Of a stretch of DNA of 38,349 nt, positions 1,419 to 20,792 are shown one piece after another. A program made the translations under genes and the position numbers. The stretch spans positions 1 through 38,349 of IMG/VR virus record IMGVR_UViG_2681813146_000009. The stretch is one strand, 5' to 3'. The number at the start of each line of letters is the position of its first letter. Within the stretch, counting starts at the first letter, position 1. The DNA comes from a virus. Lineage: Duplodnaviria > Heunggongvirae > Uroviricota > Caudoviricetes. Below the pieces are notes generated by a model, which was not told the origin of the DNA, did no database searches, and was given only the letters and a program-made list of their open reading frames with translations.

Positions 1419-3890
1419 TTAAAAATCAGCCTGACTCGGGATCAGTTTTTGCCAGATAACTGAAACGTATTTTGCCTGGTAACGGGCGTCATCAAGTGCA
1501 TTATGGCGCTCACCTTCGAATGGAATAGCCGTTCTGGCATCGAAGTCTATGGCTTTCCCCAGCTCAACGATTGTGCGTACATCGCGATCGTTGTAGTAAC
1601 GCCACGGGCAGGGGATCCCCTGCCGTTCGTATGAACGGCGCAAAATCGTGTTGTCGAAGTTGGCTCCATTTCCCCAGACCTGAACAAAAAATTCACCGGA
1701 GTTTTCGTCGATAAATTCCCGCAATTGTAACAGTGCATCATCTAACGGGATTTCATCGGTCATAATGGCAGATTGCGCTTCGCGTGATTGCTTAAGCCAC
1801 CATTTAATGGTGTCCCGATCAATGACTCCGCCAGCAGTTTCCAGATCGATAGTCTTACTAAATTCCGGTCCCATATCTCCGGTTTGCGGATCGAAAAATA
1901 TTGCACCTATTGAGATGATCGGGGCATCAGGATTTTTTCCCATGGTTTCAAGGTCGATCATTAGATGGTCACACGTCCTGCTGGTGGATGTGATTTCTTG
2001 ATGACCGTTCACCTTAATTGAGTGATCTGCCGTCTCGCCAGTTTCATTATCGCTATCGTGATGCTGATTGCCGCCAGTGTTCTCCTTGTGTGGATGTTCA
2101 GCGCCTTCCATTTCCTCCGGATCATCTTCCTGAACTTCAACCTGATACTCTTCATCGAATGTTTCCTGGTATGTTGCGTCGCCCATCACCGCGCCACAAT
2201 CAGGGCAGTTGCCGCCGCCGGTCTGACCGCAGGCGGTGCAGACTTTTTCCACTTCCTGTTGCGCCACTGGTTCAGGCTGTTTCGTTTCTGGCTCGTTTTG
2301 TAACGCATTTGGGCTGTTTTGTTCCGCTTTCTGGCCGTTCTGTTCCGTTTCTTGCTGGTTCTGATTCACTGAATCGCGGGTTTCAATCCCCTTCACCCAT
2401 TTCGGATCATTCGGGTCGCTAATCCCTGCAACAAATTCACCACGTGATACAGCAAGCAACTTATTGGCGTCAGGCTGGCTGATATTGGCTGCCTGCATAA
2501 TTTTGTTTACTTCGTCAGCGGTAACTTTTACCGGCTCTGGTTGTGCGATCGTGTCAGATGCACCAGTATTTTGTTGTGAACCAGAGTACGTGCCGTTTTT
2601 ACGTGCGAAGTATTCCTCTTTTGTGATTTCCGTAGCTCCCAGGGCCAGTGCTTTTTCCAGACCAGAAAGTTTGTTTGCGCGACCGTATTTTTCGCCGTCC
2701 TTATCGGTGAAAAGGAAGTAGAACGGTCCCTCACGCTCTACAGATGGTTCGTCTTCCACTTCGCATTCGGTTTTTTCGTTGTCCGGCATTGCCGTTTCCA
2801 CTGCATCAGTTTCTGGTACTGGCGACGAGAGAGTATCAGTTGCGCTCTGATTTCTTCCTTCATCTTCAAACACGCCCTTTGTAGTCAGGTATTCAGTAAT
2901 GTATTTGTTCAGTGCCACAGGGTCTTTGTGAATGTCGATCGGACGTTCACGGACAAGGCCAAAAATAGTCTGGCGGTCGTAGCGAAGGGCATCAGGCTGT
3001 TTGCGCATTGATGCCGAGATACGCTTCCAGTCTTCGCGGTCGTTGTCGATAACTTCATTTTTTGCCCAGCGATGGATGCTGCCGTCAATGTTTCCGGCAT
3101 CCACATCACCAGGCCAGAGAGCGTAGGCCAGTTCGTCATCCAGTGTTTTCCATGTCTGCTTGTATTCGCGATGAATGGCAGCAATGACCGGGCTGATTTT
3201 TCCTGTTGAATTTTCACTGTGCTGTTGATTGGTTCTGGCGCGGGCGAGATCAACAACAGACGTGTATTTTCCGGTTTCCTTGCGTTCACCTTCGCGACGT
3301 TTTTTCCAGATGCGCATCTCTGCCTGAATTTCGGGCCATTTGGCACCAGGCTTACATTTATGCTTAACCCACCCGATGGCATGCAGCTTAAGCTCCGGAT
3401 ACATGGCGTTAACTTCTGGCATTTTCATCAACGCTTCAACGATATGTCCGTCGAATGTTGCCATGTCTTCCTGCAACAATTCCTGTGCGCTAATAACCAT
3501 ATCAACGGTGATGTTTTCACATGTGTCGAACTTAACCATGACAGCGTTCTGTACTTCAGGGGCCAACTTGTCAAAAGTGACGTTCATCGGATCTGATTCA
3601 GTCTCAACCGGGACAAAGGAAGCAGACTCCTCATCCCAGCGGTTTTCCTGCATATATTCAGCATCCCAGGAATCGAGGGCAGGGCGGGGTATGCCGGGTT
3701 TATCCTCACAGACAATAAATTTATAAGCGCAGTCCTGAGCAGCCGGATAATGTTCCAGGAATTGCCAGTGAAATTTTGCGCGGGCGCGACGTTCATCACC
3801 GGCTTCAATGGCAGTGGCTACAGCGACTGCACCTTCTTCCTTTATTGCCTGTTCGTCCGGAATGGCGGCGCAAATAAAGACTTTACTCAT
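1419..3890 (-). CDS. Large early-operon exonuclease; C-terminal DnaQ-like DEDDh 3'-5' exonuclease domain, central Cys-rich zinc-ribbon-like motif
   Basis: 823-aa ORF; C-terminus shows Exo I (MIDLETMG), Exo II (GNGANFDNTIL) and Exo III (HNALDDARY) motifs; CTACGQTGGGNCPDCG motif; GAGG RBS. Confidence 0.8.
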   Translation of the reverse strand: MSKVFICAAIPDEQAIKEEGAVAVATAIEAGDERRARAKFHWQFLEHYPAAQDCAYKFIVCEDKPGIPRPALDSWDAEYMQENRWDEESASFVPVETESDPMNVTFDKLAPEVQNAVMVKFDTCENITVDMVISAQELLQEDMATFDGHIVEALMKMPEVNAMYPELKLHAIGWVKHKCKPGAKWPEIQAEMRIWKKRREGERKETGKYTSVVDLARARTNQQHSENSTGKISPVIAAIHREYKQTWKTLDDELAYALWPGDVDAGNIDGSIHRWAKNEVIDNDREDWKRISASMRKQPDALRYDRQTIFGLVRERPIDIHKDPVALNKYITEYLTTKGVFEDEGRNQSATDTLSSPVPETDAVETAMPDNEKTECEVEDEPSVEREGPFYFLFTDKDGEKYGRANKLSGLEKALALGATEITKEEYFARKNGTYSGSQQNTGASDTIAQPEPVKVTADEVNKIMQAANISQPDANKLLAVSRGEFVAGISDPNDPKWVKGIETRDSVNQNQQETEQNGQKAEQNSPNALQNEPETKQPEPVAQQEVEKVCTACGQTGGGNCPDCGAVMGDATYQETFDEEYQVEVQEDDPEEMEGAEHPHKENTGGNQHHDSDNETGETADHSIKVNGHQEITSTSRTCDHLMIDLETMGKNPDAPIISIGAIFFDPQTGDMGPEFSKTIDLETAGGVIDRDTIKWWLKQSREAQSAIMTDEIPLDDALLQLREFIDENSGEFFVQVWGNGANFDNTILRRSYERQGIPCPWRYYNDRDVRTIVELGKAIDFDARTAIPFEGERHNALDDARYQAKYVSVIWQKLIPSQADF

Positions 3891-3982
3891 TTTGTTTTAC
3901 CTCATTACAGATTTAAGGGTGAACAAATCCCTGCCATTGCTGGCATATAAGAATGAAACCGGATATTTATTACGGAACTGTT

Positions 3983-4174
3983 TTAAAGACCTGCCGGGAT
4001 TTCGTTATTATCCTGGTGAATAACTTTATCGACCGGGTAACAGTTACCGGGAATTTTCTGTTCGGTTGCTGCAGTCACACACTCCTGCATTGTCCTGTGA
4101 ACACTGACTGCAATATCAACTGGCTCTCCGGAAACAAGAAAAACTGTCAGAACAAGTGCAAATGCTGTATTCAT
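3983..4174 (-). CDS. ydfD: YdfD-like small protein with N-terminal signal/TM segment (Qin-type dicB operon distal gene)
   Basis: 63-aa ORF MNTAFALVLTVFLVSG...; AAGGA RBS; ATGA overlap with dicB stop; matches recalled K-12 YdfD. Confidence 0.7.
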   Translation of the reverse strand: MNTAFALVLTVFLVSGEPVDIAVSVHRTMQECVTAATEQKIPGNCYPVDKVIHQDNNEIPAGL

Positions 4175-4359
4175 TGTGCACATCCTTTTTGTATCGGACG
4201 TAAACGGGCCAGCATTGAAAGAATGCATATTTTATTTAATAACTCCCGTTCGTGTTTTCTCTTGTTAATGGCATCTTCAGTAAATACAGGGTTACTGATA
4301 GTGACACCAATTTCAAAACAACCTTCAGACGTATTAACGTTTGGTAATAACGTTTTCAT
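4171..4359 (-). CDS. dicB: Cell division inhibitor DicB
   Basis: 62-aa ORF MKTLLPNVNTSEGCFEIGVTISNPVFTEDAINKRK... matching recalled DicB; GAGGG RBS; immediately downstream of dicF. Confidence 0.85.
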   Translation of the reverse strand: MKTLLPNVNTSEGCFEIGVTISNPVFTEDAINKRKHERELLNKICILSMLARLRPIQKGCAQ

Positions 4360-4528
4360 TATCGCGCCCTCAACAATGAGTTTTGTGATGCGGTGCCTGG
4401 TGCCTCCAGGTGACGTTAACCAGTTAACAATTAACGCCGGATACAGAGAATCCACCCATAACACTGTTTTTGGTTTTAACTGTTCCGCGTGCGCTTAGCC
4501 GCATTCACCGCATCACAAAATTCACTTT

Positions 4529-4586
4529 AAAAAGGGCGGCAGAGCAGTCACGGAGTAAAACTGATACCGCCAAACGTCACCAGAAA
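4529..4586 (-). ncRNA. dicF: DicF small RNA (ftsZ-targeting sRNA), ends approximate
   Basis: Minus-strand sequence TTTCTGGTGACGTTTGGCGGTATCAGTTTTACTCCGTGACTGCTCTGCCGCCCTTTTT matches recalled DicF; ends in GC-rich stem plus T-run; lies between ydfC-like and dicB as in Qin. Confidence 0.85.
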
Positions 4587-4921
4587 ATTGATAACAGAGG
4601 GCGTTGCAGCGGGGTTGTCACTTAAGCGTATGGTCAACCTGACAACCCGGTGTCCTCAACGGGGGAAGGAATAACCCCGCCATACTTACCGCCGCGCCAT
4701 TTCGCGGATTGCCACAACCGGAAGCGCACGGTCGACGAAAATTTAACGACAGGCTATCTATGAACCAGCTACCTCGCCGAGCGCTTTCGCGTTATGGTCT
4801 GACTTTTCAGGGAAATATCCTTTCAGTAAACTGTCAGTGCCGGATGCTCACCCGTGTCCGGCGCACGCACTCCACCTCACCCGTGGAGAACTCCTTAATC
4901 ACCAACCCTCAGGAGGGTGAA

Positions 4922-5197
4922 ATGTCGACTGAAAATGATGAAATCATTAACTCCCTGATACGCCAGATTAATAATTTTGATAAAGCATTGCAGCATGCTG
5001 CGGCGCGTAGTGATATAACTCTTTTAGCAATTTCATTTCTTGCATCTGTTATGGATAAAAATGAAGTCGTACGACAGAGTCTTGTTGATTATATCGACTC
5101 GCTTCAACCCGGCACTTTCAATCATGAGAGCTTCAATCATGAGAAAGAGCATGTTAAGTCTGTAATTAATTCTCTTATTTTGAATCAAAAGAATTAA
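4922..5197 (+). CDS. Hypothetical protein, 91 aa, AT-rich, antisense to the dicB operon
   Basis: Strong AGGAGGG RBS 6 nt upstream of ATG 4922; contains FNHESFNHE tandem repeat; the in-frame upstream extension from TTG 4709 judged non-coding. Confidence 0.5.
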   Translation: MSTENDEIINSLIRQINNFDKALQHAAARSDITLLAISFLASVMDKNEVVRQSLVDYIDSLQPGTFNHESFNHEKEHVKSVINSLILNQKN

Positions 5198-12227: not shown

Positions 12228-12287
12228 ATGCGACACATAGAGATTAGCCTCTTACGGACCGAAAGGTCAAGGAGAAGCAGGCTATGA
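12228..12287 (+). CDS. Short leader ORF overlapping hok start (mok-like coupling element, tentative)
   Basis: 19-codon ORF with TGAGG upstream; stop overlaps hok ATG as ATGA. Confidence 0.3.
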   Translation: MRHIEISLLRTERSRRSRL

Positions 12288-12439
12288 AGCAGCAAAAGGC
12301 GATGTTAATCGCCCTGATCGTCATCTGTTTAACCGTCATAGTGACGGCACTGGTAACGAGGAAAGACCTCTGCGAGGTACGAATCCGAACCGGCCAGACG
12401 GAGGTCGCTGTCTTCACAGCTTACGAACCTGAGGAGTAA
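12284..12439 (+). CDS. hok: Hok/Gef family type I toxin (HokD/RelF-like)
   Basis: 51-aa ORF MKQQKAMLIALIVICLTVIVTALVTRKDLCEVRIRTGQTEVAVFTAYEPEE; AAGGAGAAG RBS. Confidence 0.85.
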   Translation: MKQQKAMLIALIVICLTVIVTALVTRKDLCEVRIRTGQTEVAVFTAYEPEE

Positions 12440-13939: not shown

Positions 13940-14302
13940 ATGACTGAACGCATAGAATTTGTTTTGCCTTACCCGCCGACGGTGAATACCTACTGGCGAC
14001 GTCATGGCAATACGTATTTCATCTCGGAGGCCGGAAAGCGTTATCGCCGTGATGTGGCGCTAATTGTTCGCCAGCAGCGGCTGAAATTAAACCTGTCCGG
14101 AAGGCTGGCGATAAAGGTGATTGCAGAGCCACCGGATAAGCGTCGTCGCGACCTGGACAATATCCTGAAAGCACCGCTGGATGCGCTGACGCATGCGGGA
14201 GTGTTAATGGACGATGAGCAGTTTGATGAAATCAATATCGTTCGTGGTCAGCCAGTATCTGGTGGACGTCTGGGGGTGAAGATTTACCCCATAATGCATT
14301 AA
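13940..14302 (+). CDS. rusA: Holliday junction resolvase RusA
   Basis: 120-aa ORF with RusA-like motifs (YPPTVNTYWR, RRDLDN); start abuts upstream stop. Confidence 0.85.
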   Translation: MTERIEFVLPYPPTVNTYWRRHGNTYFISEAGKRYRRDVALIVRQQRLKLNLSGRLAIKVIAEPPDKRRRDLDNILKAPLDALTHAGVLMDDEQFDEINIVRGQPVSGGRLGVKIYPIMH

Positions 14303-14316
14303 GAGCAGGTCAAAAA

Positions 14317-15138
14317 ATGAAACTGGAAGATTTACCGAAATACTACTCCCCAAAATCCCCTGGCCTGACCGATGCATCGGCCTCAACGTCAAAAGATGCG
14401 CTGAGTATCACTGATGTGATGGCCGCGCAGGGCATGACACAGAATCGGGCTGAGATGGGTTTTTCTGCGTTCCTGGGGAAAATGGGCATCAGTATGAATG
14501 ACAGGGCGCGGGCAACAGAATTACTGGCAGATTATGCACTCAGTCGGTGCGATCGTGTGGCGGCGTTGAGAAAACTTCCGGCAGAAATAAAACCGGTAGT
14601 GATGCGCATTATGGCTTCGTACGCTTTTGAGGATTATGCCCGCAGCGCAGCGAGTAAAAAGCAGTGCCCTTGTTGCTATGGGGAAAAATTTATTGAAAGC
14701 GTAGTTTTTACAAACAAGGTCCAGTATCCGGATGGTAAGCCGCCGGTATGGGCAAAGTGTACGAAAGGTGTGTATTCGTCTTACTGGGAAGAATGGAAAA
14801 AAGTCAGGGAGGTGGTAAAAGTTGCCTGTCCGGAGTGTGGCGGAAAGGGTGAGGTTTCCACCGCCTGTAAGGATTGCCGTGGGCGTGGTGTCGCCATTCA
14901 TCGTGAAGAGTCGGTAAAACGTGGTATGCCTGTTATCAGAGACTGCCAGCGTTGTGGTGGTCGTGGCTATGAAAGACTACCATCAACGGAGGCATTTAAT
15001 GCTATATGCGAGGTGACAAACCAGATAACACGCGCGTCATGGGAAAAAACAGTTAAGAAATTCTATGATGCGCTGGTGACCCGGTTTGATATTGAAGAAG
15101 CATGGGCTGAGCGGCAGTTAAAAAAGGTAACTAGGTAA
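14317..15138 (+). CDS. Q: Late-gene antiterminator Q (Cys-rich zinc-binding type)
   Basis: 273-aa ORF with multiple CxxC pairs; immediately upstream of PR'-like promoter, terminator and tRNAs. Confidence 0.75.
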   Translation: MKLEDLPKYYSPKSPGLTDASASTSKDALSITDVMAAQGMTQNRAEMGFSAFLGKMGISMNDRARATELLADYALSRCDRVAALRKLPAEIKPVVMRIMASYAFEDYARSAASKKQCPCCYGEKFIESVVFTNKVQYPDGKPPVWAKCTKGVYSSYWEEWKKVREVVKVACPECGGKGEVSTACKDCRGRGVAIHREESVKRGMPVIRDCQRCGGRGYERLPSTEAFNAICEVTNQITRASWEKTVKKFYDALVTRFDIEEAWAERQLKKVTR

Positions 15139-15143
15139 CAAGG

Positions 15144-15171
15144 TTGATTTTTCCGGAATCTGTGGTAAATT
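15144..15171 (+). promoter_or_regulatory. Candidate late promoter PR' (-35 TTGATT, 16-nt spacer, -10 TAAATT); qut expected nearby
   Basis: Sigma70-like hexamers directly after Q. Confidence 0.45.
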
Positions 15172-15220
15172 CGTCATAACAATGGGCTTTTTATGCCTGG
15201 CGTTAGAAGAGTTTCTACAA

Positions 15221-15242
15221 CCCGCCGCCGAGCGGGTTTTTT
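15221..15242 (+). terminator. Rho-independent terminator (tR'-like): CCCGC-CGCCGA-GCGGG plus T-run
   Basis: GC stem-loop followed by TTTTTT. Confidence 0.7.
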
Positions 15243-15281
15243 ATTGCGGAATTAATTACGGACCGTTATTATTCTGCTCCC

Positions 15282-15357
15282 GGCCCTTTAGCTCAGTGGT
15301 GAGAGCGAGCGACTCATAATCGCCAGGTCGCTGGTTCAAATCCAGCAAGGGCCACCA
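15282..15357 (+). tRNA. ileZ: tRNA-Ile2 (anticodon CAT, lysidine type; ileZ-like) with encoded CCA
   Basis: Manual cloverleaf: acceptor GGCCCTT/AAGGGCC, anticodon loop CTCATAA, T-loop GGTTCAAATCC; close to recalled E. coli tRNA-Ile2. Confidence 0.8.
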
Positions 15358-15457
15358 TCACAAACCGCCATTAGCTTATCAGGAAGAGCAGACGACACGA
15401 TAACAGGGTTGTTGGTGCGGGGGCGGGTCCCCGATGGCGGTCCATTATCGGTATTCA

Positions 15458-15531
15458 GCGTTGTTAGCTCAGCCGGACAGAGCAATTGCCTTCTAAGCAA
15501 TCGGTCACTGGTTCGAATCCAGTACAGCGCG
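15458..15531 (+). tRNA. tRNA-Arg (anticodon TCT; argN/argO-like)
   Basis: Manual cloverleaf: acceptor GCGTTGT/ACAGCGC, anticodon loop CTTCTAA, T-loop GGTTCGAATCC. Confidence 0.75.
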
Positions 15532-15644
15532 CTATATTCATTCTTCCAGATTCCTTCCGGCAGAGCCTTATACTGAAATATACCTGGCTCAGGATATTGT
15601 TGAAAATATTTTATGTTTGTCAAAAATAAAAGTTCTGTTAAGTA

Positions 15645-15998
15645 TTGATTGAGTGTTTGTTATACGGTCTAATGGTTTTTTCAGCATTAAATATTTATCA
15701 TTCATATGGTGTGGGTAGAGTGAATATTGATGAGGCGTCGGGGTGTTTCATCCTTAGGCAGCGTATTGATATAGTCAATGCAGGACGAGCAAAGGCCTTC
15801 AGCCGTTTGACAGTTTTGTTCTGTACTCCTGATCGTCTTTCGGGAAGAGACGTTATTATTCTGAATAGTGATGCTATACAGAGGGTTTGCGATGAGTTCA
15901 TGGTTGCTAATTCAGAATTATTTGCTCTTGTTCAGGAGTACAACAGAATAGCCAGTACCTGTGGTATGGATGAACTTCGGATTACTCATCTGGGGTAG
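15645..15998 (+). CDS. Hypothetical ORF in AT-rich island; start uncertain (TTG 15645, ATG 15672 or GTG 15720), may be non-functional
   Basis: No convincing RBS; AT-rich. Confidence 0.25.
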   Translation: MIECLLYGLMVFSALNIYHSYGVGRVNIDEASGCFILRQRIDIVNAGRAKAFSRLTVLFCTPDRLSGRDVIILNSDAIQRVCDEFMVANSELFALVQEYNRIASTCGMDELRITHLG

Positions 15999-16078
15999 AT
16001 ACATATCTGGATTATCACTTGTTACGGTAAAAAGTGATTGCTTACTGTTTTTGTGAGTGGCATTGCAGCAGCCGGATA

Positions 16079-16165
16079 ATGTCAGTGCTGGCTGACGGTG
16101 TGCTGGTGGCGGGTGTGGTGGTTGTTGCTTTCCCGTTGCTGAAAAAGAAAACGCCAGACTGTTAG
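16079..16165 (+). CDS. Possible 28-aa hydrophobic peptide MSVLADGVLVAGVVVVAFPLLKKKTPDC
   Basis: Manual translation; weak RBS; hydrophobic core plus KKK resembles small membrane toxin peptides. Confidence 0.2.
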   Translation: MSVLADGVLVAGVVVVAFPLLKKKTPDC

Positions 16166-16390
16166 CCGGGTATCAGTTAGCGGGAGAAATTTTTAAATAC
16201 TTCACAATTCAGGCGGTTGACTGTTGTCTGGTTTGCGGGGAGTTTGTTAAAAGAAACTGGCATGGTGAATCCCCCTGTGCGGAGGGGCAATCAGCGAGTA
16301 GGTATATGGGATAATCGCGGATTCAGGTGCTGGTACTGAATTCACCGGGAGGCACCCGGCACCATGCAATGGCACATAGCGCCACTCTCC

Positions 16391-16425
16391 AGCCCCTCTC
16401 CGGAGGGGCTGTTTATATTGATTTT
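16391..16425 (+). terminator. Candidate rho-independent terminator (AGCCCCTC-TCCG-GAGGGGCT plus T-rich tail)
   Basis: 8-bp GC stem with tetraloop followed by GTTTATATTGATTTT. Confidence 0.5.
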
Positions 16426-16445
16426 GTCAGATGTGAGTAAACTCC

Positions 16446-16781
16446 TTATGGACTTTGTTGTTTTAGTCCATAAGGACATATTTGCAGAGTGCAACGGTTA
16501 TTAAAGCATTCATTCAATACGTTATCTGTATTTGTAGGACATTCCTGGCTGTTTTTGATTAAATTCCAGAATGTTTTATTGAATGGTGCTACGTTGTAAA
16601 TGGTTACAGGTAGCACTTTGTTATTGAGCATGATACCTGTGTGAGTCAGTGTAAATATACTTTCAGGAGGTAAGAAAGCATCCGATTGATACCAGATTAT
16701 TAATTTTATTTTACTCCATATGACTGAAAAAGATATTCCGCATGATGGCTGGATAACTGTATCAATCACAATCCACTTCAT
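16446..16781 (-). CDS. Hypothetical protein (111 aa) in AT-rich island
   Basis: AAGGAAA RBS 6-7 nt upstream of ATG; coding 3' end carries a perfect 10-bp inverted repeat. Confidence 0.55.
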
Positions 16782-17041
16782 TTAGTTTCCTTGTTTATGT
16801 CTTGCTGGTGATGTTCTGAAAAGTATAAATGATATTTTTGAATGTAAACCATAGAGCAGAATTATTTTTCTGATGTTGTTTATTGTTTATTTAAATGCAG
16901 GGTGGTTTATATCTCGTCTTGTAGTTTATCCATGCATATCTGCTTGATGATGAGGTTTTTATTTAAGGTATGGTTTTGTGTTTTTTCTGTATTACATGTC
17001 AGGTATTTTAAAGAATTATTTTTCAGATGGTGGAAAGAACC

Positions 17042-19003
17042 ATGGCATTTAAACACTATGATGTTGTCAGGGCGGCATCGCCGTCAGACCTTGCGAAACG
17101 ACTGACACAAAAACTGAAGGAGGGGTGGCAGCCATTTGGCAGTCCGGTGGCCATCACGCCTTATACCCTGATGCAGGCCATTGCGGCGGAAGGTGATGTC
17201 ACCACACCTGTGGTGGTGAAGCCGTCGGATGGAGAAGGCGCAGTTATCAGCACCACCAGCAACCCGGAGTATTACTTTGTTGTTGCCCTGGCCGGGCAGT
17301 CAAACGGTATGGCGTATGGTGAAGGGCTTCCGCTGCCGGAGACATATGACCGTCCGGACCCGCGTATTAAACAGCTGGCGCGTCGCAGCACTGTCACGCC
17401 GGGTGGTGCGTTCTGTAACTACAATGACATTATTCCTGCGGACCACTGCCTGCATGATGTTCAGGATTTGAGTAAGTTTTCACACCCGAAAGCCAGTGCA
17501 GCTCAGTATGGATGCGTGGGGCAGGGATTACATATCGCGAAGAAATTGTTGCCGTTTATTCCGGCGAATGCCGGTATTCTTCTGGTTCCGTGCTGCCGTG
17601 GTGGTTCTGCATTTTTGGCGGGCGATGAAGGTACCTTCAGCGAATCCACCGGCGCAAGCGAGACCTCGGCACGCTGGGGTGTAGATAAGCCACTGTACAA
17701 GGACCTGCTTACCCGTACTCAGGCCGCACTGAAGGCCAACCCTAAAAATATTCTGCTTGCAGTGGTCTGGATGCAGGGCGAGTTTGATTTGAAACAGGGT
17801 GCATACGCCACTCAGCCGGGGCTGTTTGATTCCATGGTGGAAAAATATCGTTCTGACCTGTCGGAATTCGGAGGTCAGTGTCTCGGGGGCTCTCCGTCAT
17901 CGGTTCCCTGGATTTGTGGCGACACGACCTACTACTGGAAGCAGACTTATTCTTCGCAATACGATGCGGTGTATGGTGCATACAAGACGAAATCCGCAAA
18001 AAAAATCTTCTTTGTGCCGTTTATGACGGATGAAAACGGGCGAAATGTGGGTACCAACGAGCCGTCAGAAGATCCGGATGTTGCGGATATTGGGTATTAC
18101 GGAGCCGGTGGTCGAACGGACGCCAAAACCTGGACGACGGCTGACCGTAAAACGCATTTTGGATCATGGGCACGTCGTGGGATTATTTCCGACCGTCTGG
18201 CAACGGCGATTCTTGTGCATGCCGGGAGAAACGCTGAATTCATTACCGGAAAACAGCCTGATACGGTGAAGCCCACCGGACCTTCCGGTGAAGGTACGGA
18301 GAGAGAGCCGGAAGCCCCGGTCAGTAACCGAACCCTGATGAGTCTGCTGGCGTCCGGCGAAGACCTGGCATCACAGGGCTGGCGCTATTATCACAAACCG
18401 GCGAGCGGAGACAATGTTAACAAAAACATTGCTGAAGCGGTGGTCAGTGATGCGGGGGCTACGGGAGGTAAGGCCCTGCAACTGAATAAACCGGAAAACC
18501 ACATCTGGTTTCTGGAGCATGATGCAGCCGGACAGGGAGTGGAGTTACTGAAGAAGGGGGGACGTGTGAGCGTACGGTTTAAGTTGCCGGGTTCACTGGT
18601 GCCGAATCAGTTTGCCCTGGGCATTTACTGGCAGTTGTCGTCCCTGCCGGAGGGAGTGACGCTGGCAGAGGAAGGCAACGACATGCTGATGTCCTTCTTT
18701 CTGCAGACGGATGCGACGAACCTGAACGCGATGCACCACAAGAAGCCGAATGCGAAGCTGGAAACGTTCGGGGTCTTTGATAACGGATGGCACACACTGG
18801 CTTTTGAGTTTGCCGGAAACAACAGCATTCAGGTGACGCCGGTACTGGATGAGAAACGGGGGACGCCGTTCACACTGGTGAAATCTCCGGCATCAGGGGC
18901 GGCGGACAAACTGCAACTGACAGGCATATCAAAGGCGGCGACATATACGCTGCTGATTGACAGTGTGAAGGTGGAAGTGAACAACGCGGACATCGCGGCA
19001 TGA
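17042..19003 (+). CDS. nanS-p: Prophage sialate O-acetylesterase NanS-p-like (N-terminal DUF1737-like region plus SASA-type esterase)
   Basis: 653-aa ORF starting MAFKHYDVV; recalled similarity to EHEC prophage NanS-p; position downstream of Q/tRNAs and upstream of lysis genes as in Stx phages. Confidence 0.8.
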   Translation: MAFKHYDVVRAASPSDLAKRLTQKLKEGWQPFGSPVAITPYTLMQAIAAEGDVTTPVVVKPSDGEGAVISTTSNPEYYFVVALAGQSNGMAYGEGLPLPETYDRPDPRIKQLARRSTVTPGGAFCNYNDIIPADHCLHDVQDLSKFSHPKASAAQYGCVGQGLHIAKKLLPFIPANAGILLVPCCRGGSAFLAGDEGTFSESTGASETSARWGVDKPLYKDLLTRTQAALKANPKNILLAVVWMQGEFDLKQGAYATQPGLFDSMVEKYRSDLSEFGGQCLGGSPSSVPWICGDTTYYWKQTYSSQYDAVYGAYKTKSAKKIFFVPFMTDENGRNVGTNEPSEDPDVADIGYYGAGGRTDAKTWTTADRKTHFGSWARRGIISDRLATAILVHAGRNAEFITGKQPDTVKPTGPSGEGTEREPEAPVSNRTLMSLLASGEDLASQGWRYYHKPASGDNVNKNIAEAVVSDAGATGGKALQLNKPENHIWFLEHDAAGQGVELLKKGGRVSVRFKLPGSLVPNQFALGIYWQLSSLPEGVTLAEEGNDMLMSFFLQTDATNLNAMHHKKPNAKLETFGVFDNGWHTLAFEFAGNNSIQVTPVLDEKRGTPFTLVKSPASGAADKLQLTGISKAATYTLLIDSVKVEVNNADIAA

Positions 19004-19139
19004 TAAAAAAAGCCGCCAGCGGCAGGAATGGAAGCTGGCGGAGGTAATCCCAATGGAGAATGTAAAGAAAAGATGCTTTCGACATCAATCATTTCTAAAT
19101 GAAAACAGTTCTCATTGTCAACCATAACGGTAAGAAATT

Positions 19140-19897: not shown

Positions 19898-19901
19898 AGT
19901 G

Positions 19902-20792
19902 ATGAATAAAAAATATGAACTGGTTGTTAAGGGGATAAATAATTACGGGGATAAGGTTACTGTTACTGTGAAGTCGGAAGGTGACGGGCAAGCGTCGCTG
20001 TTGTTGCCAGATGTGGCGATTAGTCTTGACCGTACTGAAGGTGCCACGCTGGAGTTTTACGAAGCTGAGGCGAAAAAGCAGGCGAAGCAGTTTTTCATGG
20101 ATGTTGCTGCCGGGTTATGTGAATGGAACGAACCGTTGCCGGAAAAGCGCCCCGTAATTTTAGAGGCGCAGGATGTGTTGATAACCTACAAAGGAAAGCT
20201 ACCGGGAAGAATTACTTGTTCTCTGAAGATGCCGCCGTCAACACTGCGGTCAGAAAAAGATGATGTTGAATCACGTATTGAAAAACTGGAGAGCTACGTC
20301 GTTGAGCTGAATAAGAAATGGTCGATATTGGTGCCTTCTGGCGATGAAAAGCAGTTTGCTGCGTTTGACGATTATTGTCGGAAAGTGATGAGCAGAAATC
20401 TCGCAGAGTGTTTCAGTATTCATAATGATAATTTCAGTGACCCGGAATGGGAGTGTAACCGGCCATCCTTTGTTGTATCCGGTGATGCTGGGAAAATAAC
20501 CATCTCAGAAAATGGGAAAGTAACACCTCCATCGCACCAGCACAGTGAGGAGCTCATTGAATTTGCCATTGATTACCTGAAGAACAATAAAAAGCAGGGG
20601 CTGATGAAGCGCGTTGGCCGTTGCATGGGATATCTTCAGGTAGCCGCTGAGATTGAAGCGCTGGCCAGTGGTGCTGATAAGGATGCAATTGTGCGGGAGG
20701 CTCTTCTTCGTGATTTTAATACTCCACCCTTTAAAAAAGTGCCGGCTTACTGGCTTCATCCGGGGCTGACTTATCTTAAAGTGCGTATTTAG
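19902..20792 (+). CDS. Hypothetical protein (296 aa) inserted between holin and endolysin
   Basis: ORF starts 4 nt after holin stop with GGGGAGAG RBS; no TM segment or motif I recognise. Confidence 0.7.
   Translation: MNKKYELVVKGINNYGDKVTVTVKSEGDGQASLLLPDVAISLDRTEGATLEFYEAEAKKQAKQFFMDVAAGLCEWNEPLPEKRPVILEAQDVLITYKGKLPGRITCSLKMPPSTLRSEKDDVESRIEKLESYVVELNKKWSILVPSGDEKQFAAFDDYCRKVMSRNLAECFSIHNDNFSDPEWECNRPSFVVSGDAGKITISENGKVTPPSHQHSEELIEFAIDYLKNNKKQGLMKRVGRCMGYLQVAAEIEALASGADKDAIVREALLRDFNTPPFKKVPAYWLHPGLTYLKVRI

Follow-up and report, generated by a model that had tools for sequence, protein, structure and literature searches.

Genes and features between the tRNA block and nanS-p

We analyzed an interval of 1510 nt (positions 15532–17041) in a 38,349-nt stretch of Caudoviricetes DNA, the IMG/VR record IMGVR_UViG_2681813146_000009; "the window" denotes this whole stretch. 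The interval extends from a tRNA-Arg gene to nanS-p and is placed 3′ of Q/PR′/tR′ and an ileZ–arg tRNA block and 5′ of nanS-p and the lysis genes. It holds orf92, a DUF3927 gene and a small RNA (sRNA) gene of the STnc100 family on the plus strand, and iraL on the minus strand (Table 1). A preceding reading of the letters without database searches (the sequence-only reading) had described it as an AT-rich cargo island in the slot that carries the Shiga toxin genes (stx) in Stx phages. The AT-richness held for the interval as a whole, which had a GC content of 0.393 compared with 0.512 for the whole window and was its lowest-GC 1.5-kb stretch, with only 0.07% of same-size stretches being equally low; however, it was not uniform. 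GC content was 0.38 in the left arm (15533–16033), 0.51 in the center (16034–16445), and 0.32 in iraL and its upstream region (16446–17041), with 0.30 for 16782–17041. The island was composite, with two cassettes of differing composition around a GC-normal sRNA gene; neither this sRNA gene nor the DUF3927 gene appeared in the sequence-only reading.

Table 1 Features of the interval and its flanks, with counterparts in the phage 933W (933W coordinates as in locus L004; PGAP, Prokaryotic Genome Annotation Pipeline; UTR, untranslated region; RACE, rapid amplification of cDNA ends)
Feature	Position	Strand	Basis	933W counterpart
Q late-gene antiterminator, 273 aa	14317..15138	+	Pfam PF03589 Antiterm, 184 bits; PGAP 'antitermination protein' (identical genome)	
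Candidate PR′ (TTGATT, 16-nt spacer, TAAATT)	15144-15171	+	Position only	
tR′-like intrinsic terminator	Stem 15219-15238 + T-run	+	Terminator scan	
Candidate tRNA promoter pT (TTGCGG, 17-nt spacer, TATTAT)	15244..15272	+	Aligns with 933W region annotated pT	
tRNA block	15282-15532			tRNAs, 3121-3372
tRNA, anticodon CAT, ileZ-like	15282-15357	+	ARAGORN; Rfam tRNA, 72.5 bits; PGAP tRNA-Ile	
Decayed homologue of middle tRNA argN	15364..15445	+	Aligns with 933W and CFT073 argN	
tRNA-Arg(UCU), argO-like	15458-15532	+	ARAGORN; Rfam, 68 bits; aligned with 933W argO	
Cassette A (sub-slot A), about 645 nt	15545..16190	+	Filled versus empty site junctions in IMG/VR L007, L015, L035; 933W map	stx2AB, 3463-4703
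orf92, conserved 92-aa protein, GTG start inside ORF 15645-15998	15720..15998	+	Homologues, selection, PHROG	
DUF3927/TciB-like small protein, 43 aa	16034..16165	+	Pfam PF13064; PHROG 1470; PGAP WP_000562553.1 at same coordinates	
STnc100-family sRNA gene	16231..16420	+	Rfam RF02076	STnc100, 4778-4983 (+)
Cassette B (sub-slot B), about 630 nt, GC 0.32	16413..17041	−	Replaces 205-nt AsxR/nanS-p leader of 933W	AsxR, 4985-5037 (−)
iraL, RssB anti-adaptor, 111 aa	16446..16781	−	CFT073 IraL match, NCBIfam, structure match	
iraL 5′UTR (33 nt) and sigma-70 promoter	16782..16848	−	5′RACE sequence mapping; CFT073 hexamers	
iraL transcription start; −10 TATACT; −35 TTTACA	16814; 16827..16822; 16848..16843	−	From CFT073 mapping	
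AT-rich intergenic region between divergent iraL and nanS-p	16849..17041		Most polymorphic part of island	
nanS-p-type sialate O-acetylesterase	17042..19003	+	Pfam DUF1737, SASA, DUF6645; conserved ATG at 17042	nanS-p start, 5190

The 111-aa minus-strand open reading frame (ORF), which the sequence-only reading had located together with a good ribosome-binding site (AAGGAA, 6–7 nt before the ATG), is identified by homology as IraL and is no uncharacterized gene. Comparison with the characterized protein of uropathogenic Escherichia coli CFT073 revealed 110 identical residues of 111 (99%), with a single substitution (A65 in the window, V65 in CFT073), whereas identity to K-12 IraM was 63%. The criterion that separates iraL from iraM in PMC4045071 is a coding region at least 95% identical to that of CFT073 iraL, and by it the gene belongs with iraL. 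Database searches, as that reading had advised, returned a full-length hit to the NCBIfam IraM model NF007393 (162.4 bits, with the cut-off at 121) and the IraM structure PDB 8TWD (E = 2e-32). K-12 IraM belongs to the same family and is likewise an RssB anti-adaptor, but it lies beside the e14 element, in another genomic context and under another promoter; stress induces IraM, while IraL is active in log phase without stress, and their RssB contacts differ (PMC4045071). Hryckowian et al. (2014) named the CFT073 gene in work that included a genetic screen, and reported that its product stabilizes RpoS in logarithmic phase, that it interacts with RssB differently from IraM, and that iraL is enriched among uropathogenic and Shigella isolates (PMC4045071). 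The gene was intact in all 139 related IMG/VR copies.

The CFT073 mRNA begins with ACATCACCAGCAAGGCATAAACAAGGAAACCA (PMC4045071), and this 5′RACE sequence mapped to the minus strand at 16814..16783 with 2 mismatches. The −10 and −35 hexamers were identical to those of CFT073, and the −100 to +33 fragment (133 nt), which complements an iraL mutant in single copy, differed at 3 positions; identity of at least 96% across all iraL strains has been reported for this promoter (PMC4045071). Since both the start and the hexamers are conserved, iraL appears to be transcribed from its own sigma-70 promoter, against the late operon. The adjoining intergenic region contained 11.4 segregating sites per 100 nt among the 139 copies. 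A 12-bp hairpin lies across the iraL stop codon (16443–16476, minus strand), and after it comes the sRNA terminator as its reverse complement; the 111-nt stretch had a fold z-score of −6. The iraL and sRNA transcripts could overlap, because the two genes are convergent and 25 nt apart.

The island as a whole was widespread. Many complete E. coli genomes contain the 1494 nt from tRNA-Arg to nanS-p with 100% identity, and 863 of 5426 genomes carry at least 80% of this sequence; RefSeq labels within it read 'anti-adapter protein IraM', 'DUF3927 family protein' and a partial 'hypothetical protein'. Over 15440–17100 the window matched the CFT073 potB prophage at about 99% identity and shared its gene order. 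The window in its entirety is related to that prophage as a mosaic, and the two integrases were 99.1% identical. Both loci contain the tRNAs, DUF3927, STnc100, iraL and nanS-p as neighbors, but CFT073 has three intact tRNAs, an IS200 upstream and a truncated nanS-p, whereas in the window argN is decayed and nanS-p is full length. The island is essentially already known, real and functional rather than an unknown cargo, and its parts other than iraL belong to catalogued families.

The sRNA gene matched Rfam RF02076 over the full model (positions 1–206) with 132.4 bits against a gathering threshold of 47 (E = 4e-30), and ends in a terminator with a 9-bp stem containing 7 G-C pairs (16390–16411) followed by the T-rich tail TTTATATT. 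The 933W copy scored higher (208 bits), the internal region of the window copy being shortened. In 933W the homologous element is found 75 nt after stx2B, as has been reported for STnc100 downstream of stx2 (PMC12370729). According to a 2026 preprint, STnc100 is related to the PasD sRNAs, and both are linked to Q and sialate-esterase genes; the window sRNA is likewise found between Q and a sialate esterase gene. By analogy with other STnc100 copies, described in the literature as a discrete Hfq-associated RNA, it is most likely an Hfq-dependent base-pairing regulator. In identical genomes, RefSeq places a partial 'hypothetical protein' pseudogene (16250–16375, minus strand) inside the STnc100 match; this call is most likely spurious, because it overlaps a high-scoring sRNA. 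Other prophages contain tandem STnc100-family arrays between the tRNAs or an orf92 homologue and nanS-p, with five copies in L006 (L006:1667–1879 and L006:3639–4618) and two each in L039 and L151.

In cassette A, the plus-strand ORF at 15645–15998, which the sequence-only reading had rated as weakly supported, exists and contains a selected gene, but its conserved core starts at GTG 15720 and encodes 92 residues (orf92). A blastn search with the orf92 segment revealed copies of 60–80% identity in about 126 genomes, with matches spanning exactly the ORF, and at least 80% of the segment 15560–16033 was present in 1183 genomes. The homologues at L005:3032–3310 and L006:3071–3349 likewise start at the GTG equivalent to 15720 and encode 92 residues. 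Comparison of the three lineages, which share 67–72% nucleotide identity, revealed that the 92 codons were kept without indels, with a synonymous divergence (dS) of about 1, a ratio of nonsynonymous to synonymous divergence (dN/dS) of 0.24–0.28, and changes at third codon positions outnumbering those at first or second positions about twofold. The other five frames mostly contained stops; one L005 antisense frame was open over the 273 nt scored and corresponds to a 95-aa minus-strand ORF. orf92 was intact in all 130 IMG/VR copies; the IMG/VR iraL and orf92 locus sets overlap in contigs. Judged by these substitution patterns, orf92 is a genuine gene under purifying selection.

Its product matched phrog_2873 (PHROG 2873, function unknown; E = 9e-58), in a family of about 20 clusters among 1.8–5.8 billion proteins. 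The AlphaFold model is a two-helix hairpin (pLDDT 84.7) whose linker would contain a conserved T/S-P-D-R/K motif, and a profile search against PDB sequences gave no match. Relatives at 33–40% identity occurred in other genera and in other contexts. The relative P0025 (39% identical), from a Citrobacter braakii prophage, is followed by a TciA-like (TerB) gene, a TciB-like (DUF3927) gene and holins, and a scan of genome contigs returned one locus, in C. braakii. P0026 follows another Q-like gene at a distance of about 1 kb, P0027 adjoins a fimbrial operon, and P0030 comes after type IV pilus genes. When deposited phages were searched with tblastn, orf92 and the Citrobacter-type relative each matched only mEp460_ev081.

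The DUF3927 gene follows orf92 with a spacing of 35 nt. Its 43-aa product scored 95.6 bits against PF13064 (gathering threshold 25) and matched phrog_1470, 'TciB-like' (E = 8e-13); the hydrophobic stretch VLADGVLVAGVVVVAFPLL suggests a small membrane protein. TciA/TciB-type genes of P1-like and lambdoid phages (PHROG 632 and PHROG 1470) offer the closest comparison, the 43-aa protein matching the TciB-like partner, but the window differs from such systems in that it contains no TerB/TciA gene. The 'Tci' name records a putative, annotation-only assignment, and a literature search on tciB returned nothing relevant.

Comparison with the stx slot

The order Q, tR′, tRNAs and nanS-p, likened to that of Stx phages by the sequence-only reading, proved collinear with 933W, in which the stx2 locus runs Q, PR′/tR′, ileZ argN argO, stx2AB, STnc100, AsxR and nanS-p. 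Homology between the window and 933W was confined to three pieces, namely the tRNA block (86.6% identical), the sRNA (71%) and the nanS-p start (91%), and the sequence between them was unrelated. In the window, orf92 and DUF3927 occupy the place of stx2AB (sub-slot A), and iraL occupies that of AsxR and the nanS-p leader (sub-slot B); in blastn, homology ended after the sRNA and restarted at 17041, with no similarity to the 933W leader. Nothing in 14300–19100 matched 933W stx2AB and no ORF contained a toxin domain, as the sequence-only reading had stated for stx. The slot is homologous to the stx slot, yet the prophage is not an Stx phage.

Comparison with related prophages revealed that the occupancy of the two sub-slots differed. 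In many iraL prophages sub-slot A was empty, consisting of 76–80 nt with only the post-argO terminator, and such empty sites join the region upstream of the sRNA at the common TTTTTAAAT; some related prophages contained DUF3927 alone, or extra sRNA copies. Conversely, the orf92 loci L147 and L151 lack iraL and have a 933W-type nanS-p leader instead (177 of 232 positions identical). An assignment of their sub-slot B to AsxR was dropped, as Rfam did not confirm it and the alignment revealed a leader with a diverged segment at the AsxR position. The post-argO terminator of the empty and stx-bearing sites was missing from the window. From these alignments, the two cargo positions vary independently around a conserved sRNA. 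Because the flanks are homologous, the cargo positions are exchanged independently and no match to stx2AB is present, the island is a replacement rather than a decayed stx remnant, which settles the alternatives that the sequence-only reading had left to an alignment of the flanks. A deletion variant was also found in IMG/VR (L044 and L052), in which the decayed argN region is fused to the 3′ end of DUF3927; its junction lies at a shared GGTTGTTG microhomology, the window-equivalent region being about 15415–16130, and tRNA-Arg and orf92 are lost.

Interpretation of the island and alternative readings

These results make it very probable that the interval is an iraL accessory ('moron') island, at the stx position, of a lambdoid prophage closely related to the CFT073 potB prophage. 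Two independently exchangeable cassettes would flank a conserved STnc100-family sRNA gene. In the lysogen, IraL produced from its own promoter would sequester the adaptor RssB, and RpoS would then not be delivered to ClpXP; because RssB is blocked, RpoS should rise even in exponential phase, as was shown for CFT073 and as we infer here. The island would bring about lysogenic conversion through iraL, which the resident prophage would express without need of Q; late transcription after induction would run antisense to iraL. The sequence-only reading had argued for conversion cargo from the very high expression expected at this position after Q antitermination. A conversion gene is indeed present, but the argument fails for iraL, because iraL runs opposite to late transcription from PR′ and is served by a mapped sigma-70 promoter of its own. 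The genes for orf92 and the TciB-like protein would be transcribed by Q-modified polymerase from PR′, and, the post-argO terminator being missing, transcription from the tRNA promoter may reach them as well in lysogens. The terminator scan detected no terminator between the tRNA promoter and orf92 in the window, and this promoter is active in Stx-phage lysogens (PMC7547250).

Several points weigh against this reading, or at least against its extension to every part of the island. RssB binding and RpoS stabilization by the window IraL would be transferred from the CFT073 protein, which differs at the A65/V65 residue, and co-transcription of cassette A with the tRNAs is likewise only presumed. 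orf92 had no recognizable domain, with no Pfam or NCBIfam match; in Foldseek searches of PDB and BFVD nothing reached E ≤ 0.001, the hits being generic helical or coiled-coil hairpins, and among 36 close copies in the matches listed RefSeq had no annotation over 15560–16033. PADLOC models matched neither orf92 nor DUF3927, and IraL only as noise (E = 0.05); a reading as a defense system was dropped after this negative scan. Of 125 copies of the DUF3927 gene, 4 are interrupted by a premature stop. Before the Rfam start of the sRNA, neither scanning nor reading by eye detected a convincing sigma-70 −10 element, and inspection after the conserved TTGAC(T/A) upstream of it yielded a poor match only. 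A consensus promoter scan of 15100–17100 returned 6 promoter-like sites, compared with 5.6 expected from shuffles, so that any sRNA promoter is unsupported. The same applies to the TTGTCA at 15617–15622, which the sequence-only reading had offered as a candidate promoter and which is absent from the plus-strand sites listed by the scan.

The main rival concerns the role of orf92 and DUF3927. Cassette A might be a lytic-only late module, acting for example on the envelope, on lysis timing or in superinfection, rather than conversion cargo. We take this as a possibility of some substance, though not the favored one, since Q and PR′ lie upstream of the cassette, which is on the late strand, since the C. 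braakii homologue precedes TciA-like, TciB-like and holin genes, and since P0026 comes about 1 kb after a Q-like gene. However, sub-slot A is empty in many iraL prophages, which makes the cassette dispensable for the phage; relatives of orf92 occur without DUF3927 and outside prophages, and with no terminator between the tRNA promoter and orf92, lysogens could express the cassette. We regard as rather unlikely a further reading of orf92, as a second, unrecognized lysogenic-conversion or regulatory factor expressed in lysogens; its selection, its place exactly at the stx position, its missing RefSeq annotation in the sampled close copies and the lack of a terminator behind the constitutive tRNA promoter may be cited for it. 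A broader version, to which we give no more weight, makes the late region a hotspot repeatedly loaded with host-regulatory cargo converging on the RpoS/Hfq network, with IraL, the tR′-terminated StxS RNA of Stx phages, and the AsxR and STnc100/PasD sRNAs as cases. It is improbable that gene finding produced the plus-strand ORF as an artefact, with iraL and the sRNA as the only functional elements: the missing RefSeq annotation, the weak Shine–Dalgarno sequence before GTG 15720 and the lack of Pfam or NCBIfam matches would fit an artefact, but they stand against three lineages with exactly 92 codons and no indel, a dN/dS of about 0.25 at a dS of about 1 with a third-position excess, stops in most of the other frames (the antisense frame of L005 excepted), and diverged relatives in other genera and contexts.

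Very little probability falls to an unknown toxin or virulence cargo that has replaced stx and is expressed via Q antitermination, the possibility closest to the sequence-only reading. The position is that of stx, and orf92, of unassigned function, is located exactly at the stx sub-slot on the late strand. Against this, the product of the largest gene, IraL, is a known regulator, and that gene occupies the other strand under a promoter of its own; orf92 encodes a cytoplasmic-looking helical hairpin in which no signal peptide or toxin domain was detected, and its relatives also occur outside phage late regions, beside fimbrial and pilus clusters. Scarcely credible is a decayed remnant, of lost stx flanks or of other lost cargo, with chance ORFs only. 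The AT-rich DNA, the decay of the adjoining argN tRNA, the PGAP pseudogene within the interval and the unannotated 15533–16033 could be cited in its favor, but the interval shows no stx2AB similarity, the three ORFs each remain intact across 121–139 independent copies, orf92 is under purifying selection, iraL is experimentally functional in CFT073 (PMC4045071), and the pseudogene, overlapping the sRNA, is best read as spurious.

On the reading as an iraL island, the prophage probably alters host stress physiology, given that IraL raises RpoS in growing cells. The stx hotspot would consist of two exchangeable sub-slots around a conserved sRNA, one holding stx, orf92 with a tciB-like gene, or nothing, and the other AsxR with the leader or iraL; this description helps in reading prophage late regions and in predicting what a lysogen gains. 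Annotation gaps came to light as well: RefSeq lacks orf92 in the close copies sampled and places a spurious pseudogene over the sRNA. Whereas the current understanding of how such elements work is unchanged, the recognition of orf92 as a selected gene and the two-sub-slot description of the hotspot are small additions.

Flanking framework and observations elsewhere in the window

The Q gene is of the PF03589 type and contains a DnaJ-like CXXCXGXG zinc-finger region with 29.6 bits, which is under the Pfam cut-off. Q and PR′ were unrelated to those of 933W, and no similarity was seen upstream of the tRNA promoter. The candidate PR′ matched 8 of 12 consensus bases, under the threshold of the promoter scan, and the region 15144..15246 covering it and tR′ had a predicted fold of −34.3 kcal/mol. 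The short terminated RNA that PR′ would yield (about 15172–15246) differs from StxS, since Q is unrelated to that of 933W. At the place equivalent to pT, a transcription start driving the tRNAs has been mapped in Stx phages (PMC7547250). In the alignment the CAT tRNA was identical to 933W ileZ; the argN copy is diverged in the anticodon-arm region and was called by neither ARAGORN nor Rfam. PGAP labels the nanS-p product 'SASA family carbohydrate esterase' and starts it at the same ATG.

Two further loci of the window were noted. A 297-aa ORF (19899–20792, plus strand) between the holin and lysozyme genes combines a DUF1327/YdfR-like N-terminal part of 100 residues with about 195 further residues, and its whole length matches PHROG 1085. 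Where a genome agrees fully with the window across the interval (the comparison being confined to the interval), the PGAP call is restricted to the N-terminal portion and reads as a truncated pseudogene. A genome that agrees in this way, again compared across the interval only, also has an annotated type I toxin gene of the hokD type ahead of DUF968–RusA–Q, which corresponds to about 12284–12439 in window coordinates by offset from L001, and a sok RNA match was found at the equivalent place in the related CFT073 prophage.

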